Notes: generated from the sequence alone by a model not told the origin. 64,000 bases of DNA from Opitutia bacterium (GCA_947475065.1 CANJLB010000003.1:20214-84213); one strand, 5' to 3'; positions 5,743 through 61,742 are shown, counted from the first letter of the stretch. Program-made: numbers and translations.

Positions 5743-5949
5743 TCAGGGTTTGTAATCGGGGAAATCAAATCCGAAGCGATAGCCGGCCGGAATCGGCTTG
5801 AGATCCAGATAGCGGCCATCGCGCCAGATCTTCAGCGCAATGGGTTCATCCGGGGCCAGATCACGGATCAGCGTATACCGGTTGCCATCAGTGACCGCGT
5901 AGCCCCGTTCCCTCACAATCACGTCGCCTGTTTTGAGCCCGGCATCCAC
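5743..5949 (-). pseudogene. orphan PDZ-domain fragment (possible remnant of an HtrA/PDZ protein)
   Basis: 68-codon ORF (GTG start) reading ...GLKTGDVIVRERGYAVTDGN..., which is PDZ-like. An in-frame TGA lies immediately upstream and the upstream frames are non-protein-like. A GGGGG run at ~5990 is a possible frameshift site. Confidence 0.3.
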
Positions 5950-9419: not shown

Positions 9420-9426
9420 GGGAAAT

Positions 9427-9541
9427 ACGGATTGCGGATTGTGGAGTGCGGAATTTTCGGAGGTGAAAAAGTGGGCGCCGCCGTGAAAATTTTCAGCGGG
9501 TTCGCGTCATCTCATTCCGCACTCCGAATTCCGCAATCCGC
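9427..9541. repeat. imperfect ~29-bp inverted repeat with ~57-nt spacer between ybaB and recR
   Basis: tacggattgcggattgtggagtgcggaat (9427-9455) pairs with attccgcactccgaattccgcaatccgca (9513-9541). Each arm contains a tandem cggattg heptamer. Confidence 0.6.
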
Positions 9542-9544
9542 ATT

Positions 9545-9853
9545 TCAAAACATCCCCGGCATCTGGAACTGGCTCGTGACTTTCTGCATCTCTGCGTCGT
9601 GGTGCGCCTTGGCCTGCTGGGCCGCGTCCTGCACGGCGGCGAGCACGGTGTCGGCCACGAGCTTGGCGTCCTCCTTGAGGAATTCCGGATCTAGCGTGAG
9701 TGCGAGAAACTTGCCGCCGCCGCTGATTTTCACGCGCACCGCCCCGCCGCCGCTCGTGACTTCGATTTCCTTGGCGTCGAGCTGCGCTTGGAGCGACTCG
9801 ATGCCGCGCTGCATTTTCTGGGCTTGTTTGAGAAGTTTGCCAACGCCAGCCAT
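9545..9853 (-). CDS. ybaB: YbaB/EbfC nucleoid-associated protein
   Basis: 102 aa: MAGVGKLLKQAQKMQ...VTSGGGAVRVKISGGGKF...MPGMF. This is the canonical YbaB sequence, and ybaB-recR synteny is preserved. Confidence 0.9.
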   Translation of the reverse strand: MAGVGKLLKQAQKMQRGIESLQAQLDAKEIEVTSGGGAVRVKISGGGKFLALTLDPEFLKEDAKLVADTVLAAVQDAAQQAKAHHDAEMQKVTSQFQMPGMF

Positions 9854-30642: not shown

Positions 30643-31051
30643 TCACGCCTGGCGTTCACAGGAATTATCGTGCGCATCTGACCTGAAAAAAGCGAGTTGC
30701 GAAAACTAGGGTGTCGGGATGCTTGATCGCCGGAGCCGTGTCCCCATGTTCGCTTCCGTCTGAGTTCTTTCACCGCCTAAGGCGACGCCGCTTCCTCGGC
30801 GTCAACACGGGGGAACCAATATCCGCTGCGCTCTCTCGCGGCGGACGGGGCGAACGGACGCAGGCGACTGCGCCCAAGGTCACTTCCTAGGACCAAGCCC
30901 GTCAGCTAACCTCGTCGGCAATGGGAAGGGTGATCCACTAGGGCTCCCGCCTCGGCGGGATGTCCCCACGGTCGCTCCAACGCAATCGCACCGTCGTGTG
31001 CATACGGGAATACCGTGTGTGCCGCCGGGGCACTTCACGGAGATTAATCCT

Positions 31052-32950
31052 ATGACCGCCTTGTTCTCATCCCCCTCGGATGTCGTGCGCCTGCTCGCGC
31101 ACCTCTTGCTCATCGGCGCGGGCCTCGTGCTCGTGGGCTTCGCCTGTCAGAGCCGCCGCCCTGCCGCCCGCCTCTGCTTCGGTGCGGTGGCGCTCGCCTT
31201 TGCCGTCGCCGCGATCCTGCTGGCCGAGAGTTGGCCGGAGCGCGCGCTGCTGCTCTCCGGCGGCCTGATCTTCGCACCGGCGCTGCTCGGCCTGGTGGTC
31301 ATTCGCGAAAGCCAGGTCGGCGTCGTCATCAAGAAGTTTTCCCCGCGTTCGCTGCCTGCCGGCCAGTTCATCGCGCTCGACGGCGAGGCTGGCTACCAGG
31401 CCGACACGCTCCCGCCCGGGGTGCATTTCGGCCGCTGGTTCTGGCAGTTTTCCATCGTGAAATTTCCGGTGGTGGTCGTACCGCAGGGCGAGGTGGCGCT
31501 CGTGGTCGCCGCCGCCGGCATACCCATCCCCGCCGAGCGCATCCTCGCCAAAGTGGTCGCCTGCGACAGCTTTCAGGACGCCCGCAAGTTTCTGCTCGGC
31601 GGCGGCGAGAAAGGCCGCCAGCTCGGCCTGCTTACCGCCGGCACCTACCGGATCAACCCGGCAATGTTTCAGGTCATTACCGGCCGTCCGATCACGCTCA
31701 TCCAGCCGGATCAGGTTGGCATCGTCACGACGCTCGACGGACGCCCGATTGACCCTGGCGAGATCGCCGGGCCGTTATTGGGCGGTCACGAAAACTTCCA
31801 AAATGCCCAGGCGTTCATCGCGGGCGGCGGCCGGCGCGGGCTGCAGGAACAGGTGCTGCTCTCCGGCTCCTGGAACCTCAACCCGTGGTTCGCGCAGGTC
31901 GAGCAGGTGCCGATGCTCAGCATCCCCATCGGCTCCGTCGGCGTGGTCATCTCCTTTGTCGGCCTGGCACACGAGGATGTGAGCGGCGCGGCCTTCAAGC
32001 ATGGTGATCTTGTCAACGTGGGCCACAAGGGCGTGTGGGTTTCGCCGCTCTATCCCGGCAAGCACCCGGTCAACACCCGCGTGATGCGCGTCGAGCTCGT
32101 GCCCACCACCAACATCGTCCTCAACTGGGCCAACCGCACGGAGTCGCACCACTTCGATGAAAAGCTCAGCTCCATCACGGTCCGCTCCAAGGATGGCTTT
32201 GCGTTCAACCTCGATGTGGCGCAGATCATCCATGTCGGCGCGCCCGACGCGCCCAAGGTCATCTCGCGCATCGGCTCGATGCAGAACCTGGTGGACCATG
32301 CCCTCCAGCCGATTGTTGGAAACTACTTCCGCAATTCCGCGCAACACCACACCGTGCTGGATTTCCTCAATGCCCGGAGCGACCGCCAGGCCGAGGCTTC
32401 GGCCCATATCCGCATCGCGCTCGCTGCCTATGACGTGCAGGCCATTGACACGCTCATCGGGGACATCACGCCGCCCGCCGAACTGATGAAAACCCAGACC
32501 GACCGCAAGATCGCCGAGGAGGAAAGGAAGACCTATGAGACGCAGGAGGCCGCTCAACGCCAGCGGCAGGAACTCGTGAAAGCCACCGCACTCGCCAACA
32601 TCCAGCAGCAGATGGTGGACGCCGACCAGGGCGTGCGCATCGCCGAGCTGCATGCGCAATCCGCCATCCGCTGCGCCAACGGCGAGGCCGAGTCCACGAA
32701 GCTCCGCGCACTGGGTGAGGCCGACGCCATCCGGGCCACTGGCAACGCCAAGGCCGAGGCCTACCGCGCCGGGGTCGAGGCGATCGGCGGCGCGAACTAC
32801 ACGCTCATGCAGCTCACGCAGACGCTCGCCGAACGAAACATGCGCATCGTGCCCGACGTGTCGGTCACTGGTGCGCAAGGCGGCAACGGCCTGCTCGACT
32901 CGATGCTTGCGCTGCTCGCACGGGAGAAAACCGACCGGAAGGCCGCCTGA
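31052..32950 (+). CDS. SPFH/band-7 (flotillin-like) membrane protein
   Basis: Two N-terminal TM helices, SPFH core and a long C-terminal coiled coil rich in EA repeats (flotillin-like). Started at the internal Met. Confidence 0.75.
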   Translation: MTALFSSPSDVVRLLAHLLLIGAGLVLVGFACQSRRPAARLCFGAVALAFAVAAILLAESWPERALLLSGGLIFAPALLGLVVIRESQVGVVIKKFSPRSLPAGQFIALDGEAGYQADTLPPGVHFGRWFWQFSIVKFPVVVVPQGEVALVVAAAGIPIPAERILAKVVACDSFQDARKFLLGGGEKGRQLGLLTAGTYRINPAMFQVITGRPITLIQPDQVGIVTTLDGRPIDPGEIAGPLLGGHENFQNAQAFIAGGGRRGLQEQVLLSGSWNLNPWFAQVEQVPMLSIPIGSVGVVISFVGLAHEDVSGAAFKHGDLVNVGHKGVWVSPLYPGKHPVNTRVMRVELVPTTNIVLNWANRTESHHFDEKLSSITVRSKDGFAFNLDVAQIIHVGAPDAPKVISRIGSMQNLVDHALQPIVGNYFRNSAQHHTVLDFLNARSDRQAEASAHIRIALAAYDVQAIDTLIGDITPPAELMKTQTDRKIAEEERKTYETQEAAQRQRQELVKATALANIQQQMVDADQGVRIAELHAQSAIRCANGEAESTKLRALGEADAIRATGNAKAEAYRAGVEAIGGANYTLMQLTQTLAERNMRIVPDVSVTGAQGGNGLLDSMLALLAREKTDRKAA

Positions 32951-40602: not shown

Positions 40603-40723
40603 TAGTGGTATAGTTTTGGTCGGTGGTAGGTTGCGCGCTCGCCGCGCAACTCCGGCGACAGAGGGCAAACGTGGCGTGACGAGCACGCCACCTACCCCGG
40701 AAAATTCAAACTGTACCACTACC
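40603..40723. mobile_element. BIME/MITE-like element (REP-A + REP-B palindromes) flanked by 10-bp direct repeat GGTCGTTGGG
   Basis: The target-site-like duplication lies at 40593-40602 and 40724-40733. Terminal inverted repeats tagtggtatagtttt / aaactgtaccacta. Internal palindromes gtaggttgcgcgctcgccgcgcaac and gtggcgtgacgagcacgccacctac are the same units that flank the RAYT at 60 kb. Confidence 0.65.
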
Positions 40724-41116
40724 GGTCGTTGGGCGATCACCGGGACCGGTTCCAGCTCCTTCAGGCATCCCTTCCCACCGGCGTCTTGAACTCGGCGCTG
40801 AACGTTCGTCTGTGTTTTGGCATGGAGGACTCTGCCCCATCAATCCGTCCCCCGCCTTCGGCAAAGGCTGCGCCGCTACGCTTCCCCTGGCTCACAACAA
40901 CTCACAAAAATCGGCCTGCCCCCTCGGCTTGGCCGCCGCCCGCGCGCGGGCCGCAAGCGGCCTGGCGTCCGTTTTTCGTCACAACGATAGCCCAATGCGA
41001 AAGATTTTCCGAGGGATTCGGGCGGCAGCGGGCGTCTTTGGGGTGAAGCCCATCCACCCGACCACATAAACCTGCATCCTTCTCCCTTCAAAATTTTCAC
41101 CACCCAAGTTGCCTTC

Positions 41117-43376: not shown

Positions 43377-43457
43377 GTCACCCCTGCGCTGGCAGCACGA
43401 AGATGCCCGGCATATCGGCCAGGGCGCGGCACCGCCCAGGTTTGCACAGCGGTTGTC

Positions 43458-43562
43458 CGGTGGTAGGTTGCGCGCTCGCCGCGCAACTCGGGCGACAGAG
43501 GGCAAACGTGGCGTGACGAGCACGCCACCTACCCCGGAAAATTCAAACTGTGCCACCACCGG
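43458..43562. mobile_element. BIME/MITE-like element, second copy (~95% identical core to 40621-40723)
   Basis: cggtggtaggttgcgcgctcgccgcgcaactcgggcgacagagggcaaacgtggcgtgacgagcacgccacctaccccggaaaattcaaactgtgccaccaccgg. Confidence 0.65.
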
Positions 43563-43900
43563 CCGGCGGCGGCACCATCACATGGCCCATGACAGCGGCG
43601 AACAGGGTTTCAGATTATTCAAGAGTGGAGGACCGAATCCTGTCCCGGAAGGCTCGTTGCCCGTACCGCATCAAGTTATGCCAACGTCTGTTAACATTGG
43701 GACGATGGGCCCGATAGCGCCGGGAAGGTTCGGTCCCGGCTCTCCCGAGCCTTTTGGGCTACACTGAGCGGCGCGCCCAGCGGGCACGCCCTACCTTGGG
43801 ATCACCCGATTAGTCTGTAGCTCAGCAAAATCCCCGTCTCCGCAGCCTGAGCCCCTTGGGCGGCTCCCCTGCCCTGCCGGCCATCCAGCCGCCTCACGCC

Positions 43901-50715: not shown

Positions 50716-50956
50716 ACGCGCTACGAGCAGACCGCCGACCCAGCTGCAAGAAACTGAGATGCACCCAGCGGGTTCGGCACGCCAGTTTGGCCTTGATCAG
50801 ACTTCGGGCCAAGGCCAGCATCAGCCAACTGAAACGGATGGATCACCGCAGCCTCGACGCCGCCTGGTGCCACGCTGCGGAAGCTTGGCTCGTCTGCTAA
50901 GGCCTGATCACCGTCTCCTCAACCCAAAAAAGTGTTACCCTATTATCCTAAACTTT

Positions 50957-51532
50957 ATGAAATATTTAATCATACTTTTAATTGCAATCAACACGTTATC
51001 TCGAGGCGAGTCCATTTCAAGCAACGATGTTCATGGTGAAGCAGTCCAATCTGGCTCGATTTCATGGAAAATTAGTTCTAGCGCCAATAGTTTATATTTT
51101 CTATACGAACTCAGTTCGGATGATTACTTAATTATATCGATAAGCAATGTTTCAAGCAAACCGGTAACTGTTCCTGCTGAAATGAACATAGTCAAAAGAT
51201 GGGACCAAATATTTTATGACAGACCTTTGCTTTTTTTACATTATAAAAATGGAAATGGAGACACTATCGGTGAATATTCTGTAGTGTCTAGTTTTTTAAT
51301 AAACATGAGCGATCCCAGATCTTCGTTTGTTCTTTTGCCGGGAACAACAATATCAGCGAGATATGATCTTTCGCTTGTTTTTCCCCTTAATCGCAAGAGG
51401 GATTTTTTTTCCAAATCTTCCCTGGACCTTTGTTCATATATGATTGAAGTTCTATTGCCTGATGCAACTTTTAAAAGTCTTGTGAAGCAAGATTCGAAAT
51501 GGAAAAACTTTAGCTCAAGAATAAAGTTATAA
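50957..51532 (+). CDS. hypothetical secreted protein encoded in a ~33% GC islet
   Basis: 192-aa ORF, MKYLIILLIAINTLSRGES signal-like N-terminus, Ser/Asn/Ile-rich. GC ~33% versus ~65% genome-wide. No homology is recognisable by eye. Confidence 0.55.
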   Translation: MKYLIILLIAINTLSRGESISSNDVHGEAVQSGSISWKISSSANSLYFLYELSSDDYLIISISNVSSKPVTVPAEMNIVKRWDQIFYDRPLLFLHYKNGNGDTIGEYSVVSSFLINMSDPRSSFVLLPGTTISARYDLSLVFPLNRKRDFFSKSSLDLCSYMIEVLLPDATFKSLVKQDSKWKNFSSRIKL

Positions 51533-51676
51533 AACTATGTTTTGCGTGTCAAAAATCATATCCCGCCCGAATACAAGCGTTATATTGAAAGATATGCGAA
51601 CCGTTGACGCTGTATTAAAAACGCATTCTTGTCTGTTATCATGCATTAATGTCTCCGCAGGGCGCTATGCGTGAGA

Positions 51677-51865
51677 TCATGGCTGCGACGCGCGGTGCCG
51701 GAGCCGGTCGAGGACGGTGGCCGCGATGATAATGCCGCCGGTGACGATCTCCTGCACCGAGTTGGAAAGGCCGAGCTTGGTGCAGCCTTTGGCCACGACA
51801 CTCATAATTAGTGCGCCGACGAGCGTGCCGACGACAGTGCCCTGGCTGGCGGCGGTTTGCCGAAC
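51677..51865 (-). pseudogene. 3' remnant of a second RbsC-type ABC permease gene
   Basis: Minus-strand translation ...[56 protein letters not shown] matches the C-terminus of RbsC-type permeases and of the intact neighbour (52009-53010). There is no room for the N-terminal ~250 aa. Confidence 0.5.
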
Positions 51866-52008
51866 ACGGGACCCGGGCCGAGACGATGCGCAAGGCTGTG
51901 CGCTTCGGCGTGCCTTCCGGCTCAGTGTGAACGGCCTGACGTTTCCGCCTTCGCCTTCAATGCCGCGCCAAAATCAGGAGCGCCGAGCCGAAGCATGGGC
52001 TGGGTGCG

Positions 52009-53010
52009 TCAGTTTTCACGGCCCTGCCGCAGGCGGTCGAAATAGACGGCCACGATGATCACGAGGCCGATGATGATCTCCTGAAAATAATTCGGCCACT
52101 CCATCGCCTGCGTGCCGGTGCGGAGCACCGCCATAAGCAGCGCGCCGATCATTGAGCCGAGCACCGTGCCCACCCCGCCGTTCAGGCTCGCGCCGCCCAC
52201 GATCACCGCCGCGATGATGTCGAGCTCCAGCCCGACGGCCGCCGTCGGGTCGCCGAGGCTCAAGCGCGAGAGCTGAAACAGCCCGGCGAGGCCAAAGAGG
52301 CACCCCGCCAGCCCATAGATCAGGATTTTCAGCCGCACGGTGGGCAGGCCGCAGAGGCGGGCGGTCTGCTCGTTGGAGCCGATGGCGAAGACGTGCCGGC
52401 CAAACACCGTGCGGCACAGCAGCAGCGCGACGAGCAGGGCGAGCGCCAGCACCACCCACACACCCACCGGCAGGGCCATGCCGTCCGGGTCGGCCGTGGT
52501 CATCCAATCGTCAACCGGCGTGTGCCAGTCCGCGTTGGCGGCCTTTTGCAGCGGGGTCGGGTAGTTGACGGTCTGGTTTTCCGCGAGCCACTTGGCCGTG
52601 CCACGCACGATGCCGAGCGTGCCGAGCGTGACGATGAACGGCACCATCCGCAGCCCGGCGATGAGCGTGCCGTTGAGCAGGCCGATGAGCGCGCCGCCGG
52701 CCACCATCGCCAGGACCGCCACGCCCGCCGGCCAGTCGTGCTGGAGCAGCCGCGCGCCGATGACGCTGGTGAGCGCGATGGTCGAGCCGACCGACAGGTC
52801 AATGCCGCCGCTCACGATGATCATGGTCATGCCCAGCGCGCCGACCGCCACGATGACCGTCTGCGTGAAAATGATCTTGAAGTTGTGGTAGGTGAAAAAA
52901 TTCCCGTGGTGGGTCACGAGCGGGACCGCGATGGAAAAAAACGCGATCACGAGGATCAGCCCGATGAACGGGCCGCCCTTGAGGAGGATTCTTTTCAAGC
53001 TGGCTTTCAT
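52009..53010 (-). CDS. sugar ABC transporter permease (RbsC/XylH-like)
   Basis: Started at MKASLKRILLKGGPFIGL. ~10 TM helices. C-terminal GGASLNGGVGTVLGSMIGALLMAVL...FDRLRQ. Confidence 0.9.
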   Translation of the reverse strand: MKASLKRILLKGGPFIGLILVIAFFSIAVPLVTHHGNFFTYHNFKIIFTQTVIVAVGALGMTMIIVSGGIDLSVGSTIALTSVIGARLLQHDWPAGVAVLAMVAGGALIGLLNGTLIAGLRMVPFIVTLGTLGIVRGTAKWLAENQTVNYPTPLQKAANADWHTPVDDWMTTADPDGMALPVGVWVVLALALLVALLLCRTVFGRHVFAIGSNEQTARLCGLPTVRLKILIYGLAGCLFGLAGLFQLSRLSLGDPTAAVGLELDIIAAVIVGGASLNGGVGTVLGSMIGALLMAVLRTGTQAMEWPNYFQEIIIGLVIIVAVYFDRLRQGREN

Positions 53011-53020
53011 GGGCAAGGGC

Positions 53021-54526
53021 TCACTCGCCGCCGGTGGCGACGCGCATGACACCGGCCTCGGTCCACTCCGCGCGCGGGCGCACGGCGGCCAGCTCGCCCC
53101 GGCACATCACGCCGATGGTGTCGCACAGCCCGAGCAGCTCGGGCAGGTAGGAGCTGACGACGACGACGGCCTTGCCCGACGCGGCGAGGTCGCCGATGAG
53201 CTGGTAAATCTGGGCCTTGCTCCCCACGTCAATGCCGCGCGTCGGCTCGTCGAGCAGGAAAATTTTCGCGGGGTGCTCCAGCAGGCGCGCGAAGGCGACC
53301 TTCTGCTGGTTGCCGCCGGAGAGCTCGCCGATGGGTTGCGCAGCGTCGCGGCATTTCACCCGCAGCTCGTCCACCCAGCGCTGCGCGGTCGCGCGCTGGC
53401 GCCCGCCGCTGATGAAGCCGAAGCGGCCGAAGCGATCCTGTTTCGTGAGCGTCAGGTTGTCGGCGATGGACTGCGAAAGCATCAGCCCCTCCTCCTTGCG
53501 GTTCTCGCTCAGAAAGCCGACGCCCTCCGTCCAACGCGCGCGCGGCGTGGAACGGCCGGCGGGCGCCCCGACGACGCAGACCTCGCCAGCGGCCAGTTCG
53601 TCCAACGAGAAAATCGCGCGCAGCAAATCCGTGCGGCCCGCGCCGATCAGCCCGCCGAGGCCGAAAATCTCGCCCGCCCGCACCTGCAAGGTGGCGCACC
53701 TGAGGCGCGGCGGGCTGACGGCGGCCCTGACCTCCAGCACGACCGCGCCGGTGGCGTGCGCGGCGCGCGGGTAGAGGTCTTTCACCTCGCGGCCGGTCAT
53801 CAGCGTGACGAGGTGGTCGAGCGTCGCGCCCTTCATCTCGCCGGAGCCGACGGTCTCGCCGTCCTTGAGCACGGTGTAGCGGTCGGCGATCCGGCGGCAT
53901 TCCTCCAGAAAATGGCTGATGTAGATGACGCCGACGCCCTGCGCGCGCAGGCGGCCAATGGTGGCGAAGAGCTTTTCGGTGTCGGCCTGCGTGAGGCTGC
54001 TCGTCGGCTCGTCCATGATGAGAATTTTGGGCTGCTTGAGGAGCGCGCGGGCGATCTCGATGACCTGCTGCTCCGCGATGGAAAATGCTCCCGCCGGGCG
54101 GCCGAGGTCGAGCGCCTCGTGGCCGAGCTGCGCAAGCGCGGCGCGGGCGCGCTCGCGGGAGGCCGCACGGTTGATCCAGCCGGCACGGGCGGACTCGTCG
54201 CCGAGCAGGATGTTCTCCTGCGCGCTGAGGTGCAGCGCGAGGTTGAGCTCCTGGTAGATCATGGCGACGCCCTTGAGCCGGGCATCGTGCGGGTTCTCCG
54301 GCAGGTAGGGCCGGCCGGCGAGCTCCATCGAGCCGGCGTCGGCCCGGTGCGCGCCGCTGAGGATTTTCATCAGCGTGCTCTTGCCCGCGCCGTTCTCGCC
54401 GATGAGCGCGTGAACCTCGCCGGGCGCGATGCCGAAGGAAACCCCGCGCAGCGCGTGGGTGGCGCCGAAGCTCTTGCGGATGCCCGCCAGCCGGAGGCTC
54501 GCGGCGGTGGTGAGAGGGTTTGTCAT
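53021..54526 (-). CDS. sugar ABC transporter ATP-binding protein with two NBDs (RbsA/XylG-like)
   Basis: Two Walker A motifs (GENGAGKST; GLIGAGRT), two ABC signatures (LSGGNQQKV etc.), 501 aa. Its ATG start codon lies inside a 33-bp repeat copy. Confidence 0.9.
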   Translation of the reverse strand: MTNPLTTAASLRLAGIRKSFGATHALRGVSFGIAPGEVHALIGENGAGKSTLMKILSGAHRADAGSMELAGRPYLPENPHDARLKGVAMIYQELNLALHLSAQENILLGDESARAGWINRAASRERARAALAQLGHEALDLGRPAGAFSIAEQQVIEIARALLKQPKILIMDEPTSSLTQADTEKLFATIGRLRAQGVGVIYISHFLEECRRIADRYTVLKDGETVGSGEMKGATLDHLVTLMTGREVKDLYPRAAHATGAVVLEVRAAVSPPRLRCATLQVRAGEIFGLGGLIGAGRTDLLRAIFSLDELAAGEVCVVGAPAGRSTPRARWTEGVGFLSENRKEEGLMLSQSIADNLTLTKQDRFGRFGFISGGRQRATAQRWVDELRVKCRDAAQPIGELSGGNQQKVAFARLLEHPAKIFLLDEPTRGIDVGSKAQIYQLIGDLAASGKAVVVVSSYLPELLGLCDTIGVMCRGELAAVRPRAEWTEAGVMRVATGGE

Positions 54527-54553
54527 TCTGAGCGCAGCGAAGAATCCAGTGCG
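54521..54553. repeat. 33-bp repeat copy 1 (tgtcattctgagcgcagcgaagaatccagtgcg)
   Basis: Overlaps both the GIY-YIG stop/C-terminal 10 codons and the ABC ATPase start codon. It is identical to copy 2 at 54893-54925. Confidence 0.8.
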
Positions 54554-54870
54554 GTGTTGGCATCCACTGAAACATCATGCCACCCCTCGGCCAAGTCTTT
54601 CCAAAGGGGATTTTCCTGCTGGATCAGAGCGATCTTCCGATCACGCCGCCAACCCTTCAGCTCGGTTTCACGGCGGATGGCGTTGGTCACATCGCGGAAC
54701 TCCTCAAAATAGACCAGCCGGTGAAGGCCGTAGCGCTTGGCAAAACCATCCTTGGCCCCGGTCTTGTGCTGCCAAGTGCGTCGTTCGAGAGAATTGGTGA
54801 CACCGATGTAAAGCGTGCCGTGCGGCTTGTTGGACAGGATATAGACCCAGTAGCTGCGGTAGGTGGACAT
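54523..54870 (-). CDS. GIY-YIG nuclease family protein (small, standalone)
   Basis: YILSNKPHGTLYIGVTNSLERRTWQH...GWRRDRKIAL is the GIY-YIG catalytic module. 115 aa. It is inserted between the ABC substrate-binding and ATPase genes. Confidence 0.85.
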   Translation of the reverse strand: MSTYRSYWVYILSNKPHGTLYIGVTNSLERRTWQHKTGAKDGFAKRYGLHRLVYFEEFRDVTNAIRRETELKGWRRDRKIALIQQENPLWKDLAEGWHDVSVDANTALDSSLRSE

Positions 54871-54892
54871 CTTGAAAGGGCGGAAAAAGGCA

Positions 54893-54977
54893 TGTCATTC
54901 TGAGCGCAGCGAAGAATCCAGTGCGAATCTCGATGGCGGACATCCAACTGGATTCTTCGCTGCGCTCAGAATGACAA
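54893..54977. repeat. 33-bp repeat copy 2 plus inverted copy 3 forming a ~30-bp-stem hairpin upstream of GIY-YIG
   Basis: tgtcattctgagcgcagcgaagaatccagtgcg (54893-54925), a 22-nt loop, then ctggattcttcgctgcgctcagaatgaca (54948-54977), the perfect reverse complement. Confidence 0.8.
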
Positions 54978-55039
54978 ACTGGGGGGCGTGCGCTCGGATT
55001 ACGCAGGCATTTCGGCTCTCCCAAACGGGCGCGCGCGGG

Positions 55040-56050
55040 TCATTTCAGGTATTTGTCGAGCGGCGGGTGGACGATCTCGGCCATCTCCGGGGCGTCGAAA
55101 TTTGCCTTGGTCACGAAGCCGACGCCGGTGTCAATGCGCGCCTCGACTTTCTGGCCCTTGATCGCGGCGACGGCGTTCTTCACGCCGAGGTAGCCCATGT
55201 TCATCGGGTTCTGGACGACGAAGCCCTGCACCTCGCCTTTCTGGAGGCCGTCGTTGAGCGTCTCGCTGGAGTCGAAGGCGACGAACGTCAGCTTGCCGGC
55301 GAGCTTGGCGTCGCGCAGGGCGAGCAGCATGCCGGAGGCGGCGGACTCGTTGCAGGCGAAGATGCCGTTGACCTGGGCGCCAAACTTGGTGAGCAGGTTT
55401 TCCGAGGCGGTCTTGGCCGAGTCGCGGGTCGCGCCGGCGTGCTGGTCGGTGGAGAGCAGCTTGATGGCAGGGAAGTCCTTCGCCATGACTTCGAGGAAGC
55501 CTTCCTCGCGCTCCTCGGTGCTGGCCGAGCCGACGAGAAAGCGGAGCATGATGACGTTGCCCTTGCCGCCGAGAATCTTGCCCAGCTCGCGGGCGGCGAT
55601 GCGGCCGCCCTCCTTGTTGTCGGTGGCGATGAAGCTAGTGAGCGCCTTCGACTGGAGGCCGGAGTCAATGACGATGACGGGGATCTTGCCCTTCACGGCG
55701 GTCTCGACCGGGGCGACGAGCGCCTTGCTGTCGAGCGGGGCGACGACGATGGCGTCAACGTGCTGGCCGATGAAGTTTTCGACGACCTGGATCTGCTGCT
55801 CGCGGTCGTCCTCCCGGAGCGGGCCTTTCCAGAGGACGTTGACCTTGATGCCCTGCGCGGCGAGCTCCAACTGGGCCTTCATGGCGCCGGCGTGGATGGA
55901 TTTCCAGAACTCGTGCGTGGTGCCTTTCGGGATGACGGCGATCTGGAGCACGCCGGCAGCGGGGGCGGCACCGGCGGCGGGCTGGTCGCTGGGAGCTTTG
56001 GAGCAAGCGCTGAGCGCGAGCAAGGTGAGGGCGGCAAAGAGGCGTTTCAT
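55040..56050 (-). CDS. sugar ABC transporter substrate-binding lipoprotein (RbsB-like, periplasmic binding protein type I)
   Basis: Started at MKRLFAALTLLALSACS (lipobox). PBP-I fold motifs (IAVIPKGTTHEFW, VDAIVVAPLD). Confidence 0.9.
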   Translation of the reverse strand: MKRLFAALTLLALSACSKAPSDQPAAGAAPAAGVLQIAVIPKGTTHEFWKSIHAGAMKAQLELAAQGIKVNVLWKGPLREDDREQQIQVVENFIGQHVDAIVVAPLDSKALVAPVETAVKGKIPVIVIDSGLQSKALTSFIATDNKEGGRIAARELGKILGGKGNVIMLRFLVGSASTEEREEGFLEVMAKDFPAIKLLSTDQHAGATRDSAKTASENLLTKFGAQVNGIFACNESAASGMLLALRDAKLAGKLTFVAFDSSETLNDGLQKGEVQGFVVQNPMNMGYLGVKNAVAAIKGQKVEARIDTGVGFVTKANFDAPEMAEIVHPPLDKYLK

Positions 56051-56424
56051 GGGAGGCGGAGGGAAGGGTCGGGGTGGAGGGGAAGGGAGCTGGGAGAACG
56101 GCAAGAAAATGGGGCCGCGTCAACGCCCTTCACGGGCCGTAGGCGGCGACGGCGGTGCCGCCAAAAATGCGCGCCTGCTCGGCGGCGGTGAGCGGAGCCG
56201 TCCAGCCGCGCACGAGGGCGTGCCACCGCGCGTAGCTGGCGGCGACCGAGCGCCGCCCTCCGAAAAAGAAATCTGATTCTCTCGAGAGATTGTAATCAGA
56301 CGATGGGAGAATAGTTTCATGCCCTCAGGCACACCAGAAATCAGCCCTTCCCCTGAGCCTCTCTGTCCCATTTCCCCAACTTGGAAAGGAGGTCAGGACC
56401 CCTTTCAAAGCTGAATCGCAGCCC

Positions 56425-57780
56425 TCATGCTTTGGAAAGCAGTTTCTGCCAGACCGCGCCGGCCGGATAGGTGTGGTCGGCAAGCGAGGCGGCTTTCATG
56501 GTGATGCTGGCGCCGGTCGCGCGGGGCGTCTGGTAGCGGCCATTTTTGACCACGCATGGATCGAGAAAATGCTCGTGCAGGTGGTCAACGAATTCGGTGA
56601 TACGCCCTTCCAGCGAGCCGCTCACACACACGAAGTCGAAGATAGACTCGTGCTGCACATATTCGCAGAGGCCGACGCCGCCGGCGTGCGGGCAGACTGG
56701 CACGCCGAACTTGGCCGCGAGCAGCAGCACGGCCACGACCTCGTTGACGCCGCCAAGGCGGCAGGAATCTATCTGGCAATAGGCCATGGCCCGTGCCTGG
56801 AGGAGTTGCTTGAACATGACGCGATTGTGGCAGTGCTCGCCCGTGGCGACACCGATACCAAACGGCTCCAGCCCGCGCGCGATCGCGGCGTGGCCGAGCA
56901 CGTCGTCCGGCGAGGTCGGTTCCTCGATCCAGAGCGGCTTGAAGGGTGCGAGCTCCTTCGTCCACGCGATGGCGGTGCCGACATCCCAACGCTGATTGGC
57001 GTCAACCATGAAACCGCGTTCCGGCCCGATGGCCTCGCGCATGATGGCCGCGCGCCGGAGGTCGTCCGCCAGGTCGGCGCCGACTTTCATCTTGAAATGG
57101 GTGAAGCCCGCCACGATTCCCTCGTGGCAGAGGCGGCGGATTTTCTCGTCGGGATAACCGAGCCAGCCGGCGGAAGTCGTGTAGGCGGGATAGCCGTCCC
57201 GCCGCATTTCGGCCTCGCGGGCAGCGCGTGTCGGCAGGAGTTTTTCCAACATGGCCTGAGCCTCGGCCGGTGTGAGCGCGTCGGTGAGGTAGCGCCAGTC
57301 CACCATCTCCACGATCTGCGCGGGCGTGAGGTCGCAGAGCAACTTCCAAAGCGGCTTCCTCTCCAGCTTGGCCCAGAGGTCCCAGAGCGCATTGACGACG
57401 GCGGCGGTGGCGAGGTGGATGACGCCCTTCTCCGGCCCGATCCAGCGGAGTTGCGAATCCCCGGTGAGGTGTTTCCAAAATGCGCCCGGCGCGGAGGTGA
57501 ATGCTGCCACCGGCTGGCCGACGACGAGCGGGCGCAGCGCCTCAATGGCGACGGCCACGATGTCGTTGCCCCGGCCGATGGTGAACGTGAGGCCGTGGCC
57601 CTCGATACCATCGCCGCGGTCGGTAGTGAGCACGACGTAGGCGGCAGAGTAGTCCGGGTCGGGGTTCATCGCGTCCGATCCGTCGAGTGACAACGAAGTG
57701 GGGAAACGCACGTCGAGGACGCGGAGGCCAGTGATGTGGCCCGCATGATGCGGGCCGGGGGAAATCGTGAAATCGGGCAT
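56425..57780 (-). CDS. enolase-superfamily dehydratase (L-fuconate/mandelate-racemase-like)
   Basis: Started at MPDFTISPG. MR/MLE signature regions (FKMKVGADLADD; IEEPTSPDD; CQIDSCRLGG). The ORF-track N-terminal ~210 aa are out-of-gene read-through. Confidence 0.85.
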   Translation of the reverse strand: MPDFTISPGPHHAGHITGLRVLDVRFPTSLSLDGSDAMNPDPDYSAAYVVLTTDRGDGIEGHGLTFTIGRGNDIVAVAIEALRPLVVGQPVAAFTSAPGAFWKHLTGDSQLRWIGPEKGVIHLATAAVVNALWDLWAKLERKPLWKLLCDLTPAQIVEMVDWRYLTDALTPAEAQAMLEKLLPTRAAREAEMRRDGYPAYTTSAGWLGYPDEKIRRLCHEGIVAGFTHFKMKVGADLADDLRRAAIMREAIGPERGFMVDANQRWDVGTAIAWTKELAPFKPLWIEEPTSPDDVLGHAAIARGLEPFGIGVATGEHCHNRVMFKQLLQARAMAYCQIDSCRLGGVNEVVAVLLLAAKFGVPVCPHAGGVGLCEYVQHESIFDFVCVSGSLEGRITEFVDHLHEHFLDPCVVKNGRYQTPRATGASITMKAASLADHTYPAGAVWQKLLSKA

Positions 57781-57859
57781 CGGGTAATCGCAGAGGGAGA
57801 ATGGCAGAGGGGAATCGTGTTCCGAGCGCAGCGACCAACTGACAATCGGGCAACTGATA

Positions 57860-57967
57860 ATCGGGAATCTTGAAATTGGACATGAGCGGCCTTCGCCGCG
57901 CGGAGAGGGATTTTCAGTTTCTCGATGCCCGATCAGGCTGATGTCGCTTCGCTCGGTACAGTTTTCG
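57860..57967. repeat. intergenic repeat family B, copy B1
   Basis: aatcgggaatcttgaaattgg (57860-57880) and ttttcagtttctcgatgcccgatcaggctgatgtcgcttcgctcggtacagttttcg (57911-57967). It shares the ggctgatgtcg...ctcggtacag core with family A. Confidence 0.5.
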
Positions 57968-57989
57968 CGATGTCGGGGGAGAACATGGT

Positions 57990-58832
57990 TCAGGCGAGCC
58001 GATAGACGCGGAGTGCGTTGCGTCGGAAGATGGCGTCCTGGTCGGCGGCAGAAAGATGGGAGACGAGCCCGCGCGCTGTCGCGAGCCAGCGTGGATAGGG
58101 GCTGGCGAGCTTGGCAACCGGCCAGTCGCCGCCGAAAAGCAGACGGCCGGGGCCGAAAGCGGCGAGGGCGTGATCCACGTAAGGTTTGAGGTCGGCAGGT
58201 TGCCACGCGACGTGGTCCGCCTCGGTGATGAGTCCGGAGAGCTTGCAGTCCACGTTGGGCAGCGCGGCCAGCTCGCTCAGATGCGCACGCCACGGGTCGA
58301 GCAGCCTGCCGCGGATGCCGGGCTTGCCAAAGTGGTCCAGGACAAAGCGCGTGCCCGGGCAGGCCCGCACGAGGCGGACGGCCGCCGACATCTGATGGTG
58401 AAAGCAACACAGGTCAAAACTCAGCCCCGCCGCGCCGACCGCCTGCACTCCGGCGATAAATTCGGGCCGGGCACAGAAATCCGGGTCCGGCTCATGCTGG
58501 ATGAGGTGGCGCACGCCGCGCACCAGCGGATGGTGCCTCAGTTGGGCGAGATAGTCCGCCGTTGTAGCGCCCTCGTTCATCATGCACTTGGCGACGATGC
58601 CGGCAATGCGCGGCTCGGCGGCGGCCAGCCGCTCCACCCATTTCGCCTCGTCGAGCCACGGTGCGCCGCACTCGACGAAGACGATCTTTTCGGGGAATTG
58701 GCCACCCGTCTCCACGCGCAGCTCATCGGGCGTGTGCGGACCGGCGATGGCCGGCACTTCCGCCAACCAAGGATAGGGCAGCGTACGCTGATCCCAGAAG
58801 TGAACGTGTGAATCTACGAAGGAGAAGCTCAT
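57990..58832 (-). CDS. amidohydrolase-2 family protein (lactonase-like)
   Basis: FVDSHVHFWD N-terminal metal-binding motif, TIM-barrel amidohydrolase_2 features. 280 aa. Confidence 0.85.
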   Translation of the reverse strand: MSFSFVDSHVHFWDQRTLPYPWLAEVPAIAGPHTPDELRVETGGQFPEKIVFVECGAPWLDEAKWVERLAAAEPRIAGIVAKCMMNEGATTADYLAQLRHHPLVRGVRHLIQHEPDPDFCARPEFIAGVQAVGAAGLSFDLCCFHHQMSAAVRLVRACPGTRFVLDHFGKPGIRGRLLDPWRAHLSELAALPNVDCKLSGLITEADHVAWQPADLKPYVDHALAAFGPGRLLFGGDWPVAKLASPYPRWLATARGLVSHLSAADQDAIFRRNALRVYRLA

Positions 58833-58867
58833 CGGAAGGTGGGGAATCGTGAAATCAGAAAACTGAA

Positions 58868-58980
58868 AATCGGGAATCTTAAAATTGGCGACGGGCTATC
58901 TGGCGCGGGGTTGCAGGGAACTTTTCAGTTTAACGATGCCCGATTTGGCTGATGTCGCTTCGCTCGGAACAGTTTGCAAG
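58868..58980. repeat. intergenic repeat family B, copy B2
   Basis: aatcgggaatcttaaaattgg (58868-58888) and ttttcagtttaacgatgcccgatttggctgatgtcgcttcgctcggaacagtttgcaag (58922-58980). Confidence 0.5.
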
Positions 58981-58988
58981 TTTCCGTT

Positions 58989-59783
58989 TCAGGTCGAGGC
59001 CTTCGTCGTGCAGGCACGGTCGAGATGCACATAGCCGCCGTCCACATGGAGGATCTGGCCGGTGGTGTGCGATGAACGGGGCGAAGCGACAAACACCACG
59101 GTGTCGGCTATCTCCTCGGCCGTGGTCATGCGGCGTTCCAGCGGAATCGTGGCTTTGATCGCGTCGAGCGAGGCGGCGGGATCGGGGCGTTTCTCAAGCC
59201 AGCGAGAGTAGAGCGGTGTCATCACCTCGGCGGGCAGCACGCAGTTCACGCGGATGCCGTATTGGGCGAGGTCGAGCGCCCATTCGCGGGTCAGGCCGTT
59301 CATCGCGCCCTTGGCGGCCACATAGCCGCTGGTGCCGCCCTGGCCGGTGACGGAGCACTTGGAGCCGATGTTGATGATGGTGCCCTGGCTGGCGATGAGC
59401 GCGTCGAGCGCGGCCTGCACGAGCACAAAGCACTGGATGATGTTTGTTTCGAGCGACGCGCGGAAATCCGCCACCGGCGCGCGCAGGCCCACGCCGTCGT
59501 TCACGCCGGCGTTGTTCACCAGGCAGTCAATTCGGCCGTGCTTCGCCCACACGGCGGCGACGGCGGCGCGCACGGCGGCCTCGTCAGTCATCTCGCAATG
59601 GAAGGTGTCGGCCTTGCGGCCCGAGGCGGAAATCTCGCCCACGAGCACGGCAGCCTCCTCGCGGTTACGGCCAAAAATGCAGACGGTCGCGCCTTCGGCG
59701 GCAAACGCGCGCGTGATGGCCGCGCCGATACCCTTCGCGCCACCGGTGACGATAACGACCTTGTGATCGAGTTCGAGTTTCAT
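58989..59783 (-). CDS. SDR family oxidoreductase
   Basis: VVIVTGGAKGIGAAI (TGxxxGxG), NNAG, catalytic YVAAK. 264 aa. Confidence 0.9.
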   Translation of the reverse strand: MKLELDHKVVIVTGGAKGIGAAITRAFAAEGATVCIFGRNREEAAVLVGEISASGRKADTFHCEMTDEAAVRAAVAAVWAKHGRIDCLVNNAGVNDGVGLRAPVADFRASLETNIIQCFVLVQAALDALIASQGTIINIGSKCSVTGQGGTSGYVAAKGAMNGLTREWALDLAQYGIRVNCVLPAEVMTPLYSRWLEKRPDPAASLDAIKATIPLERRMTTAEEIADTVVFVASPRSSHTTGQILHVDGGYVHLDRACTTKAST

Positions 59784-59890
59784 TGCGGGAAAGTGGGGCC
59801 ACGCACACGGCCCGTGGCAAGCCGGATGACTGCCGTGTGATCAGTCCCGCGTGGCAACATGCGGAGAGCGCAACCGACGCGGAATTCCCG

Positions 59891-60035
59891 GAGTTGCGCG
59901 ACGAACGCGCAACCTACACGGATCGGACGTAGGTGGCGTGTTTGCCGCGCCTCGTTTGTCCTGGCGTAGGTTGCGCGCTGGTCGCGCAACGTTTTTCCCC
60001 AGGCCCCGGAGTTGCGCGACGAGCGCGCAACCTAC
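59891..60035. repeat. REP array (three palindromic units in alternating orientation) 10 bp downstream of the RAYT stop
   Basis: gagttgcgcgacgaacgcgcaacctac (59891-59917), gtaggttgcgcgctggtcgcgcaac (59966-59990), gagttgcgcgacgagcgcgcaacctac (60009-60035). Confidence 0.8.
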
Positions 60036-60044
60036 ACGGACCAA

Positions 60045-60563
60045 TCACCCCAGCCACTCGGGGAATGGCTGGCCGTTGTCGGTCAGGTCGCGTAACCACT
60101 CCCAGTCTTCGTCGCGGCAGTAAAAATATGGCCACGTTTCCCCCTCCGCCACCAGCCCTGCCCGGGGCGGGTTCAGCCAGAGGTAGCGGATCACGCTCTC
60201 CGCCGAATCCTCCGGGCGGAGCCGATGGTCGTAGAAATTCTCCTGCCAGCCGGCGCCCTGCGGGCGCAGGAGCGCCTGCGTCTTGGTCTTGAGCCGCGCC
60301 ATGGCCTGCGAGAGCGTGAGCCGTGCGCCCAGCGTGAAAAACAGGTGCGCGTGGTCGGGCATCACGGTCAGGCAGCGCAGCGCCCACGCGCCGTCGGCGG
60401 TCAGGCGGTGCGTCTCGGCGAGCAGAGCGGGGGCGATGCCGGGGACGAGCACGGGCAGGCGCGGTTGAACGCAGACCGTCACGAAATAGTCCGCGTGCGG
60501 CACAGAGGCGCGGCCCCGGCGCAAGGCGTTGGGTCCAGTATTCCGTTTCGGCGGCGGGGCCAT
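60045..60563 (-). mobile_element. REP-associated tyrosine transposase (RAYT, IS200/IS605 TnpA-like)
   Basis: 172 aa from the internal Met. HxH motif in MPDHAHLFF and catalytic Tyr in ENFYDHRL. It is flanked on both sides by REP palindrome arrays, the defining RAYT context. Confidence 0.8.
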
Positions 60564-60575
60564 GCGGGGATTGTG

Positions 60576-60702
60576 GTAGGTTGCGCGCTCGTCGCGCAAC
60601 GTTTGGTTGTCCGGCGTAGCAACAAGGTGGCGTGCTCGTCGCGCCACGGTTGTCATCCGCCGACCCCTGATCCCTGAGTTGCGCGACGAGCGCGCAACCT
60701 AC
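60576..60702. repeat. REP array upstream of the RAYT (REP-A, REP-B variant, REP-A inverted)
   Basis: gtaggttgcgcgctcgtcgcgcaac (60576-60600), gtggcgtgctcgtcgcgccac (60627-60647), gagttgcgcgacgagcgcgcaacctac (60676-60702). The first two lie within the ORF-track N-terminal extension of the RAYT ORF. Confidence 0.8.
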
Positions 60703-60725
60703 TCCGGAGTCCGGGCCAGTTCAGC

Positions 60726-61742
60726 TCACGGCACCTCGATCATGGCTTTCAGCACGGCGGAGTTGCCAGCGATGTCCCTTGGAAAAACGACGGGCGTGTC
60801 GGCGAGCTTGAAGCGGTGGGTGATCCACGGGCGGGTGTCCACCTCCCCGTCCTCGACGAGACGGATGACCTCACGAAATGTGGCCGGCAGGGCGTTGCGG
60901 CTGCCCATGACGGTCAGCTCGCGACGGTGGAAGTTGGGGTCGTTGAACGTCACATCGCCCTGGAAGAGACCGACGAAGACAATACGCCCGCCGTGCGCAG
61001 GCAGGTCGAAGCAGCCCATCATCGAGCCGGGGTTGCCCGTGGCATCAATCACGCAGGTTGGCAGATCGCCGGCGCCAATGCGCCTCAGCTCGTCCGCCGC
61101 GCCGGGGCCGGGCCTGAGGGTGTGCTGAATGCCAAGCTGTTTCCGGCAAAAGTCGAGGCGCGTGTCACTCACGTCCATCACCGCGAGTTTCGCACCGGAG
61201 ACTTTGGCAAACTGGATCACGCTGAGCCCGATCGGACCGGCGCCGATCACGAGGATAAAATCGTCCTTGGTGGGCGCGGCGCGCTCCACGGCGTGGGCGC
61301 CGATGCCGAGCGTCTCGACCAGCGCGAGCTGCTCGTAGTCGAGCTTGGCGGACGTGTGCAGCTTATGGGTGGGGATGCGCAGAAACGGCGCCATGCCGCC
61401 GTCAATGTGGACGCCCAGCACCTGCAGCGAAGTGCAGCAGTTTGGCTTGTTGCGGCGGCAGGCAATACAGGTGCCGCAGTTCAGATAGGGCTCGACCGCG
61501 CAGCGGTCGCCGGCCTGCAGGCCGCAAGGCTTGTCGCCGGGATCGAGCACCTCGACTCCAAGCTCATGGCCGAGGACACGTGGGTAGGTGAAGAAAGGTT
61601 GCCTGCCGGCGAAAGCGTGAAGGTCAGTGCCACAGATACCGATGCGGTGAACGCGCACGAGGGCGCTGCCCGACGTGGCGGTGGGCATCGGGTGGTCAGC
61701 GGTGACAAACAAACCAGGATGTTCCAGGACGATGGTGAGCAT
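60726..61742 (-). CDS. zinc-dependent alcohol dehydrogenase (MDR family, sugar/polyol dehydrogenase-like)
   Basis: GHELGVEV (catalytic Zn), structural-Zn Cys cluster CGTCIACRRNKPNCC, GAGPIGL Rossmann motif. 338 aa. Confidence 0.9.
   Translation of the reverse strand: MLTIVLEHPGLFVTADHPMPTATSGSALVRVHRIGICGTDLHAFAGRQPFFTYPRVLGHELGVEVLDPGDKPCGLQAGDRCAVEPYLNCGTCIACRRNKPNCCTSLQVLGVHIDGGMAPFLRIPTHKLHTSAKLDYEQLALVETLGIGAHAVERAAPTKDDFILVIGAGPIGLSVIQFAKVSGAKLAVMDVSDTRLDFCRKQLGIQHTLRPGPGAADELRRIGAGDLPTCVIDATGNPGSMMGCFDLPAHGGRIVFVGLFQGDVTFNDPNFHRRELTVMGSRNALPATFREVIRLVEDGEVDTRPWITHRFKLADTPVVFPRDIAGNSAVLKAMIEVP

Follow-up and report, generated by a model that had tools for sequence, protein, structure and literature searches.

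A mosaic L-fucose gene string in an Opitutaceae bacterium: apparent insertions as probable marks of operon remodelling

On the minus strand of a 64,000-nucleotide stretch of DNA from an Opitutia bacterium (GCA_947475065.1, CANJLB010000003.1:20214-84213; this whole stretch is referred to below as the window), the interval 51.7-61.7 kb carries a string of genes for L-fucose catabolism and sugar uptake that is interrupted by several small, repeat-associated elements. A preliminary description of this DNA presented the string as a hotspot for four independent foreign insertions. Comparison with related loci leads us to favor, with moderate confidence, a different reading, namely, that the locus is a mosaic in which most of the "insertions" are junction marks of rearrangements, and one, a small GIY-YIG cassette, was borne in by a transporter module. 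The inserts are considered to mark rearrangement junctions because a palindromic element, denoted B1, coincides with the missing gene fucF, and a block containing a REP-associated tyrosine transposase (RAYT) coincides with a difference in the alcohol dehydrogenase (ADH) and AraC genes. The apparent insertion hotspot can then be reread as a record of operon remodelling that comprises a module replacement, the absence of fucF and a changed gene order.

The minus-strand order is Zn-dependent ADH, RAYT with its repetitive extragenic palindromes (REPs), L-fucose dehydrogenase, a lactonase-like amidohydrolase, L-fuconate dehydratase, a periplasmic sugar-binding protein (SBP), the GIY-YIG cassette, an ABC ATPase, a permease, a displaced permease tail and an AT-rich islet. 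The preliminary description was right about the order of the genes and about what each insert is, with all elements found at the claimed positions, and also about the assignment to the non-phosphorylative L-fucose pathway. The product of fucA (58989-59783, minus strand), a short-chain dehydrogenase/reductase (SDR), scores 356.6 bits against NCBIfam NF052481 (cut-off 300), and the enolase-superfamily dehydratase fucC/FucD (56425-57780, minus strand) scores 564 bits against the Xanthomonas structure 1yey and 593 bits against human ENOSF1. The gene between them (57990-58832, minus strand) encodes a full-length Amidohydro_2 protein, the probable L-fucono-1,5-lactonase (fucB), with a score of 181.6 bits against NF052480, below the cut-off of 400. 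The islet's AT content aside, the host DNA has ~65% GC, and the closest kin of FucD are found in metagenome-assembled genomes (MAGs) of Opitutus and Lacunisphaera (85-88% amino acid identity); judging from these sequences, the host belongs to the family Opitutaceae (Verrucomicrobiota).

In an Opitutus MAG (locus L001) and in Lacunisphaera (locus L005), the operon reads fucA, lactonase, a second SDR gene (SDR2), fucD, an FAH hydrolase gene, SBP, ATPase and permease, and the spacers in L001, which range from a 4-bp overlap to ~70 bp, amount to ~2% of the operon length, as compared to 22% of non-host-gene sequence in the operon span of the window. SDR2 adjoins fucD in L001-L006, L008 and L009, and the FAH gene directly follows fucD in L001, L002, L005, L007 and L009. 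These two genes of the relatives correspond to fucF (2-keto-3-deoxy-L-fuconate 4-dehydrogenase) and fucG (diketo-acid hydrolase), which are responsible for the last two steps of the L-fucose route that ends in pyruvate and L-lactate (PMC11199699). Within the 64 kb of the window, the search with the L001 SDR2 yielded no homologue better than fucA itself (34% identity), and no FAH match was obtained at E<=1e-5. A compact fucA-lactonase-fucF-fucD-fucG-SBP-ATPase-permease operon would, on the reading that we favor, be the reference state from which the present string was derived.

A first departure from this state is seen in the transporter, a CUT2-type ABC system made up of the SBP (Peripla_BP_4; 55040-56104), the ATPase with two ABC_tran domains (53021-54526) and the permease (BPD_transp_2; 52009-53052), all on the minus strand. 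Despite the 85-89% identity of FucD to the L001 and L005 proteins, these three proteins are only 45-57% identical to their counterparts in L001 and L005. They are 69-83% identical to the proteins of a transporter block in another Opitutus MAG (L093), where the block follows a gene for an FAD oxidoreductase and is not accompanied by fucose genes. Downstream of the intact permease gene lies the remnant of a permease already recognized in the preliminary description, and the Pfam match confirms it: a tail of 66 residues (51680-51877, minus strand) that covers positions 227-268 of the 269 Pfam positions (E=0.001). This tail shares 79% of its residues, over 56 amino acids, with the C-terminal end of the L005 permease; the figure is 68% for L001 but only 45% for the intact permease next to it. 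Because the tail resembles the Lacunisphaera-type permease rather than the adjacent one, the old transporter appears to have been displaced by the module. A second remnant, which had not been listed before, is the C-terminal part of an Amidohydro_2 protein in the spacer between the dehydratase and SBP genes (56133-56279, minus strand), where relatives have fucG.

The simplest reading of these two scars is that the transporter block replaced an older fucose transporter together with the fucG hydrolase. In such an event, fucG, the old SBP and ATPase genes and most of the old permease gene would have been swapped for a different SBP-GIY-ATPase-permease module, with the final ~60 codons of the former permease gene left downstream and the amidohydrolase tail left upstream, and the GIY-YIG cassette would have arrived together with the transporter genes. 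In locus L006, fucD is joined straight to a transporter of the window type (62-71% identical), with neither fucG nor a GIY gene. Three further observations concern the transporter genes of individual loci. In the Lacunisphaera fucose operon, an open reading frame (ORF) for a 96-amino-acid 23S_rRNA_IVP (four-helix-bundle) protein (L005, 3724-4014), flanked by low-complexity repeat boxes, fills the spacer between the SBP and ATPase genes, so that the same kind of junction has an independent occupant. One metagenome contig (L086) has a frameshift in the SBP gene at ~478-489, and another (L087) lacks 24 nt of the ATPase gene, in frame, within 1375-2856; each can be either an assembly error or a real polymorphism.

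The second departure is the absence of fucF, whose position is occupied by B1 (57781-57989, minus strand), a complete palindromic element whose arms span 57926-57959 and 57819-57852. The arms of B1 (~34 nt) pair with each other (z=-2.6). A partial copy, B2, with the left arm and the tail box, resides in the spacer between fucA and the lactonase gene (58833-58988, minus strand); B1 and B2 have two blocks in common, of 54 nt (91% identity) and 28 nt (93%), and the predicted RNA fold of B2 is no better than that of shuffled sequences (z=+0.3). Three related hairpins or arms, all outside the fucose genes, were found in the window: C1 (48648-48727), C2 (50598-50637, minus strand), a C-type arm flanked by the FAD oxidoreductase gene and the AT-rich islet, and C3 (61823-61862, plus strand), a C-type arm in the divergent spacer between the ADH and DUF1501 genes. 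Since one arm of the C1 hairpin is of the C type and the other of the B type, B and C represent two arm types of one palindromic family. All five exact B/C cores of the window fall within 48.6-61.9 kb, and no such element was found in ~2.2 Mb of other loci, except for an 18-nt B-like core in the loop of a REP in L101 and L102. As far as can be judged from these searches, B/C is a species-specific palindromic element.

B1 appears to have contributed to the gene next to it. The 3' flank of B1, a 33-nt "start box" (..CCCG ATG CCCGATTTCACGATTTCCCC) at 57755-57790, contains the ATG codon of FucD and encodes the first residues of this protein. The box is identical in 32 of its 33 positions to the start of the L005 ATPase gene (L005, 4103-4135), and both proteins begin with MPDFTISP; it is because of this identity that the start codon of FucD is considered repeat-borne. 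A weaker copy of the box is seen at the start of the L005 permease gene (5840-5864). The proposed sequence of events is that fucF was lost with B1 taking its place, that the flank of B1 supplied the new start of the dehydratase gene, and that B2 would be a partial second copy one gene upstream. A palindrome of a different kind (9422-9546; 33-nt arms that are 88% complementary, a 59-nt center and low-complexity sequence of the GGATTGCGGA type) fills a 125-bp spacer between two minus-strand genes elsewhere in the window.

The third departure is at the upstream end of the string. The Zn-ADH (60726-61742, minus strand), a member of the MDR family, is 76% identical to the ADH encoded beside the fucose genes in L001. 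In L001, however, an AraC gene and the ADH gene lie upstream on the opposite strand, with the ADH gene inverted relative to the window and placed after the AraC gene, and this AraC gene is not found at the window locus. The RAYT block is located at this difference from L001, the nearest relative, in the orientation of ADH and in the AraC gene, and would mark a rearrangement junction.

The RAYT gene itself (60045-60563, minus strand) encodes 172 amino acids when counted from M32 of a 203-amino-acid ORF; the first 31 codons of this ORF are REP sequence, and M32 is the likely start, which yields a protein as long as its homologues. The family match is narrow (NF047646, 82.2 bits, cut-off 80), and Pfam Y1_Tnp matches at E=3.5e-7; the best match in the PDB is the Escherichia coli TnpA-REP (4er8), with the HUH motif (DHAHL) and the tyrosine of RYLWLNP aligned. 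Upstream of the gene (60576-60702) are three GTAG-tagged hairpins (GTAGGTTGCGCGCTCGTCGCGCAAC and its GTGGCG variant) in alternating orientation, and downstream (59879-60035) there are four REP units, among them an inverted pair that resembles a REPIN (59966-60035). With up to three mismatches, GTAGGTTGCGCGCTCGTCGCGCAAC occurs seven times in the window against 0 expected, with five copies around RAYT and single copies at 40.6 kb and at 43.5 kb, and two units of the GTGGCG variant also lie beside RAYT. The outlying copies belong to REPIN-like doublets (40616-40728 and 43453-43565; 113 nt, 95% identical, direct orientation, 2837 bp apart) that bracket a short gene group. RAYT homologues (61-75% identity) are found in unrelated contexts, the three examined each lying between convergent genes, and the same GTAG REPs flank the homologues in L100 and L101. 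One of these REPs (L101, 5555-5600; also L102) has in its loop an insertion of ~23 nt (TTACCGAGCGGAGCGACATTGGCCA) that resembles the B core. RAYT together with its GTAG REPs is an ordinary REPtron, in line with the high enrichment of GTAG repeats in Opitutus terrae (PMC3733652).

The GIY-YIG cassette (54518-54979, minus strand) is the most peculiar of the inserts. Its ORF (54523-54870, 115 amino acids) is enclosed by 40-nt inverted repeats with arms that are 93% complementary (left, 54940-54979; right, 54518-54557), and an internal copy of the repeat (54893-54922) forms a perfect 30-bp hairpin with the left one, so that three copies are seen against 0 expected. The right repeat carries the last codons of the ORF, its TGA stop codon and the ATG codon of the ATPase gene in a 4-bp overlap (ATGA). 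In the window, L093 and L227, the right repeat ends with ...CTCAGAATGACA, in which the GIY gene terminates at TGA and the ATPase gene begins at ATG, so that all three ATPases begin with MTN. The C-terminus ...DSSLRSE, encoded inside the repeat and in the same frame, is found in 55 of 120 GIY homologues, and it is because these homologues end in-frame within the repeat that ORF and repeat are regarded as one unit.

The encoded protein matches Pfam PF01541 with 54 bits (cut-off 22.6) over residues 7-79, and the Pfam search revealed no DNA-binding extension, only an overlapping, sub-threshold T5orf172 match. Among 28 homologues, 24 positions are invariant, including Y7, Y10, Y21, G23, R31, H35 and E68. 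The synonymous sites are saturated, but pN (the proportion of nonsynonymous differences, 0.16-0.27) is far below the saturated pS (the synonymous proportion, 0.64-0.81), from which strong purifying selection on the GIY protein is deduced. The GC content at third codon positions is 0.69 in the GIY ORF versus 0.90-0.92 in the flanking transporter genes (52009-56104), even though the cassette appears to have resided there for long.

Of the eight genomic contexts inspected for GIY homologues (62-100% identity), five (the window, L093, L094-L098, the P0006 contig and L227) have the order SBP-GIY-ATPase-permease. The upstream neighbors of these five modules are fucD, a gene for an FAD oxidoreductase, an MFS gene, a divergent DUF218 gene and a YjgF gene, respectively. 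Because the same junction recurs with five different upstream neighbors, the cassette belongs to the transporter module and not to the fucose operon. The preliminary description had regarded the occurrence of the same insertions in distant relatives as contradicting its scheme; for the GIY-YIG cassette, the same junction is filled in four other Opitutaceae lineages. In the P0006 contig, for which only gene coordinates were compared, the same 4-bp overlap between the GIY and ATPase genes is present, and in L094 there are extra degenerate hairpins and the ATPase has a start of its own, unlike in the other four lineages. In L006, the SBP/ATPase junction is empty, with a GTGA overlap. Bounding by inverted repeats is also seen in L090, L093, L099 and L227. 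In L227, two hairpin elements of ~140 nt that belong to the GTCAT family (2090-2235 and 6285-6430; 93% identical, direct orientation) bracket the whole module, which sits between YjgF and an argA-like gene. Three versions of the NMT1-YjgF...argA-proS neighborhood were seen (L227, L090 and the P0008 contig): one contains the whole module along with its GIY gene, another has only GIY in the YjgF-argA interval, and in the third GIY separates argA from a 208-amino-acid ORF.

The position of the cassette suggests consequences for expression of the transporter. The spacer downstream of the SBP gene has a predicted folding energy of -84.6 kcal/mol (z=-10), with a U-rich run after it; by analogy with the REP hairpins of enteric ABC operons, this hairpin probably protects the SBP mRNA and lowers downstream expression. 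The ATGA overlap, in turn, implies that translation of the ATPase would be coupled to that of the GIY ORF, and such coupling would prevent a clean loss of the cassette. The start of the following gene is donated by a repeat in more than one case, the GIY repeat providing that of the ATPase and the start box providing that of FucD here and of the ATPase in Lacunisphaera. Because the repeats supply start codons, small elements can become structurally necessary parts of an operon, and repeat-borne start codons would explain how elements that confer no benefit of their own persist for a long time.

The repeats that bound the cassette contain a unit of 26 nt, GTCATTCTGAGCG(A/C)AGCGAAGAATCC (window copies at 54893-54976), which is a stand-alone hairpin repeat. 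A scan for this 26-mer returned at least 120 metagenome loci (L105-L224), of which 80 were analyzed, with GC contents between 0.32 and 0.70. The idea that the unit always lies beside a GIY ORF was rejected, as just three of these first 80 loci carry one, and the unit is much more widely distributed than the gene. It typically occurs alone or as two inverted copies spaced by 41-80 nt. Its short stem shows covariation (ATTC/GAAT, ATCC/GGAT, ATGT/ACAT, ACCC/GGGT, ATTGC/GCAAT) around a constant TGAGCG(A/C)AGCGAA, and the constant loop contains GCGAAGC/GCGCAGC. Calothrix plasmids yield matches of 28/28 nt, a Novosphingobium megaplasmid carries a stem variant, and further copies are located in L225 (2010-2085) and L226 (1883-1910 and 2003-2030). 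The unit, conserved to the base across phyla, belongs to no Rfam family, and no description of its sequence was found in the literature searched; this search also returned no relevant paper on GIY-YIG proteins with REP or RAYT, or on COG2827/YhbQ/UPF0213 proteins. It is conceivable, if on present evidence unlikely, that the UPF0213-type GIY ORF and the "GTCAT-tagged" 26-nt unit constitute an undescribed system of a nuclease plus dispersed hairpins, similar to RAYT/REP or to homing elements, in which the form with the ORF would, in Opitutaceae, be specific to the SBP/ATPase junction of one ABC transporter family, would be irremovable owing to the donated start codon, and would mobilize modules between operons by means of flanking hairpins such as those in L227. 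If small GIY-YIG proteins do act on the 26-nt unit, a function would become apparent for the very large, uncharacterized "GIY-YIG nuclease family".

Was there, then, a hotspot at all? In a binomial test of eleven element placements in the window, which are not independent of each other, the operon (15.7% of the window) contains four of the eleven features (P=0.08, not significant), whereas a zone between 48.6 and 62.2 kb (21% of the window), with boundaries that were set after inspection, contains eight (P=0.0004). The claim of four independent foreign insertions drawn to the operon does not hold as stated in the face of this result, given also that the elements differ in age and origin and that the B copies make up one family. 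Rather, repeats and junctions coincide over a plastic zone of 13 kb, which also holds the AT-rich ORFan islet, and this coincidence would come about either if the repeats serve as recombination substrates or if new junctions provide selectively free spacer.

The alternative that survives best, although we consider it unlikely, is genuine targeting, whereby small elements would prefer certain intercistronic structures and the GIY element, in particular, would home to the SBP-stop/ATPase-start sequence (..AARTGAC..) of this ABC transporter family; the operon would then gather elements because it provides sites of this kind. This view draws on the occupation of one and the same junction in five lineages but not in L006, which is equally related; on the decoupling of GIY identities (64-78%) from those of SBP and ATPase (59-85%) among the junction-linked loci, with the pair of window and L227 as the extreme; on the different small ORF, 23S_rRNA_IVP, in the SBP-ATPase spacer of the non-orthologous L005 transporter; and on the B-core-like 23 nt in the L101 REP loop and the clustering of all B/C cores described above. 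Each GIY variant looked up, however, occurs in a single genomic context, and there is no sign of recent copies; the 24 contigs inspected that encode the exact protein of the window, from several metagenomes and three MAGs, all have the same arrangement. Moreover, no clear target-site duplication was detected, the RTGA(C) similarity of the junctions being confounded by the element's own ATGACA end, and the incongruence is weak evidence because the GIY protein is short and its variable part is saturated. Finally, the target would be a transporter junction rather than the fucose operon, for which the enrichment is the insignificant one given above. The suggestion of region-specific targeting made in the preliminary description is thus not borne out for the operon as a target but may apply to the GIY cassette at the SBP/ATPase junction of one transporter family. 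The cassette may be ancient or may target this junction; either way, it is tied to the transporter junction.

Relaxed selection, the other explanation offered at the outset, would mean that the pathway is decaying in this species, so that deletions, remnants and selfish DNA pile up. What agrees with it is the absence of fucF and fucG from the locus and the window, the two gene remnants, the 22% of non-host-gene span compared with ~2% in L001, and the frameshift and the deletion in one contig each. Yet the genes that remain are intact, with seven full-length host ORFs in nine contigs from several samples that are 99.3-100% identical; a single one of nine relative-rate tests with FucD is significant (chi-square 8.1); the three unique changes of FucD at otherwise invariant sites are within the range of its relatives; and pN is far below pS in the GIY gene and in the transporter genes. 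The retained genes therefore look constrained, and FucD shows little sign of rate acceleration. Furthermore, L006 also has no fucG at the locus, so that fucG may be encoded elsewhere, and an aldolase route (fucH) would require neither fucF nor fucG (PMC11199699). A decay of the pathway as a whole seems quite improbable. The last alternative, that nothing special occurred and the operon of a repeat-rich Opitutaceae genome simply holds what any 10 kb with several spacers would, can point to the GTAG enrichment in O. terrae (PMC3733652), to the REPINs at 40.6 and 43.5 kb, the palindrome at 9.4 kb and the P value for the operon, and to the repeat boxes and small ORF in the L005 spacers, but is decidedly improbable in view of the eight features in 21% of the window (with the post hoc boundaries noted) and because every element falls where the content or order of the genes departs from that in the relatives, which random scatter does not predict.

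Several points weigh against the mosaic reading itself. Judging from L006, the pairing of the transporter with fucD could be old, in which case the permease tail could stem from a separate event. No proposed event has a precise before/after pair, the comparison having included no relative at 90-98% identity, and the search for element-free variants within the species yielded none, since the nine fetched contigs have the same layout without empty sites. The absence of fucF and fucG pertains to the locus and the 64-kb window, and the rest of the genome may hold fucF, fucG or an aldolase gene. As for the descent of the cassette with its module, the GIY proteins of the window and L227 form the closest pair (78%), yet the SBP and ATPase of L227 are the most distant (60-61%), and in a neighbor-joining tree of 120 GIY homologues the junction-linked copies are not resolved as a clade; the incongruence between GIY and its hosts fits repeated site-specific acquisition as well as a single ancient descent. 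The roles proposed for the mRNA hairpin and for translational coupling, too, are predictions from sequence.

The remaining features of the window can be described briefly. The AT-rich islet (~50780-51640, plus strand), mentioned in the preliminary description and substantiated by the GC profile, has 35-46% GC against ~65% around it and contains an ORFan (50957-51532, plus strand) of 191 amino acids that resembles a protein with a signal peptide; among 5.8 billion proteins, no homologue was found beyond its own species, and there is no Pfam match. An Rfam scan (gathering threshold for the whole window; E<=5 for 50.3-62.3 kb) matched none of the repeats. The Rfam matches in the window, both outside the operon, are one tRNA and one c-di-AMP (ydaO-type) riboswitch (30764-30935, plus strand; 52 bits, gathering score 38) upstream of an ORF at 30998-32950. 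A scan for sigma-70 promoters and intrinsic terminators gave the same counts as shuffled sequences, the sigma-70 model being uninformative for Verrucomicrobia, and the REP "terminators" that it returned fall on the antisense strand.

It remains to place these elements among known systems. In enteric bacteria, hairpins formed by REPs or bacterial interspersed mosaic elements (BIMEs) are said to have been described between SBP and membrane-protein genes (malE-malF, hisJ-hisQ) by Newbury et al. in 1987 and Stern et al. in 1988. The window resembles these operons in having a very stable, repeat-derived stem-loop directly after the SBP gene and before the ATPase and permease genes; it is unlike them in that the cassette with this hairpin encodes a protein of a nuclease family and supplies the start codon of the next gene. 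Free-standing genes for GIY-YIG homing endonucleases are represented by the seg genes of phage T4 and by relatives of I-TevI. With these, the cassette shares a small GIY-YIG ORF between conserved genes that is present or absent at one junction (five filled, L006 empty) and a history that may be decoupled from that of the flanks, within the limits set by a short protein and a tree that lacks resolution. It differs in that the ORF comprises only the catalytic domain of ~80 amino acids, is located in a bacterial chromosome between inverted hairpin repeats, and appears to persist in the long term under purifying selection, with a nuclease role that is predicted. The sole solved structure retrieved by sequence search, PDB 1zg2 (BH0048, UPF0213/YhbQ-like; E=6.6e-5, residues 6-85), matches the GIY protein in size and in its single-domain layout, but the identity is ~30%, and it is the Opitutaceae group that sits in hairpin repeats and often has a repeat-encoded C-terminus. 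As compared to transposons with terminal inverted repeats, the cassette has the repeats but neither a clear target-site duplication nor, for the variants looked up, multiple near-identical copies.

The other elements are closer to their known counterparts. In common with REPIN-RAYT systems (Nunvar 2010, PMC2817692; Bertels & Rainey 2011, PMC3116915; Di Nocera 2013, PMC3733652), the RAYT block has an IS200-like HUH transposase of ~170 amino acids, GC-rich GTAG hairpins on both sides and in both orientations, and REPIN-like doublets elsewhere in the window; nothing essential differs, and the RAYT of the window is co-oriented between two genes of the catabolic string. Insertion sequences (ISs) and miniature inverted-repeat transposable elements (MITEs) are known to associate with REPs, an example being ISPpu9, which resides in REPs (PMC8450116). 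The B/C elements are reminiscent of such MITEs, with imperfect inverted arms of ~34 nt, a center of ~70 nt, several copies confined to spacers and, in one relative, a B-like core inside a REP loop; unlike MITEs and ISs, they could be linked to no transposase, were seen in this species only and contribute a start codon from their flank. With regard to the pathway, the Xanthomonas/Burkholderia-type L-fucose cluster (fucA, B, C, F and G; PMC11199699) has in common with the window fucA, a gene of the lactonase family, fucC/FucD and an ABC transporter, and the complete set is present in the relatives of the window, whereas the window locus itself is devoid of fucF and fucG, has a Zn-ADH gene attached and includes no regulator. 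Taken together, the locus is a variant of known phenomena, a case of ordinary genome plasticity in a repeat-rich family.

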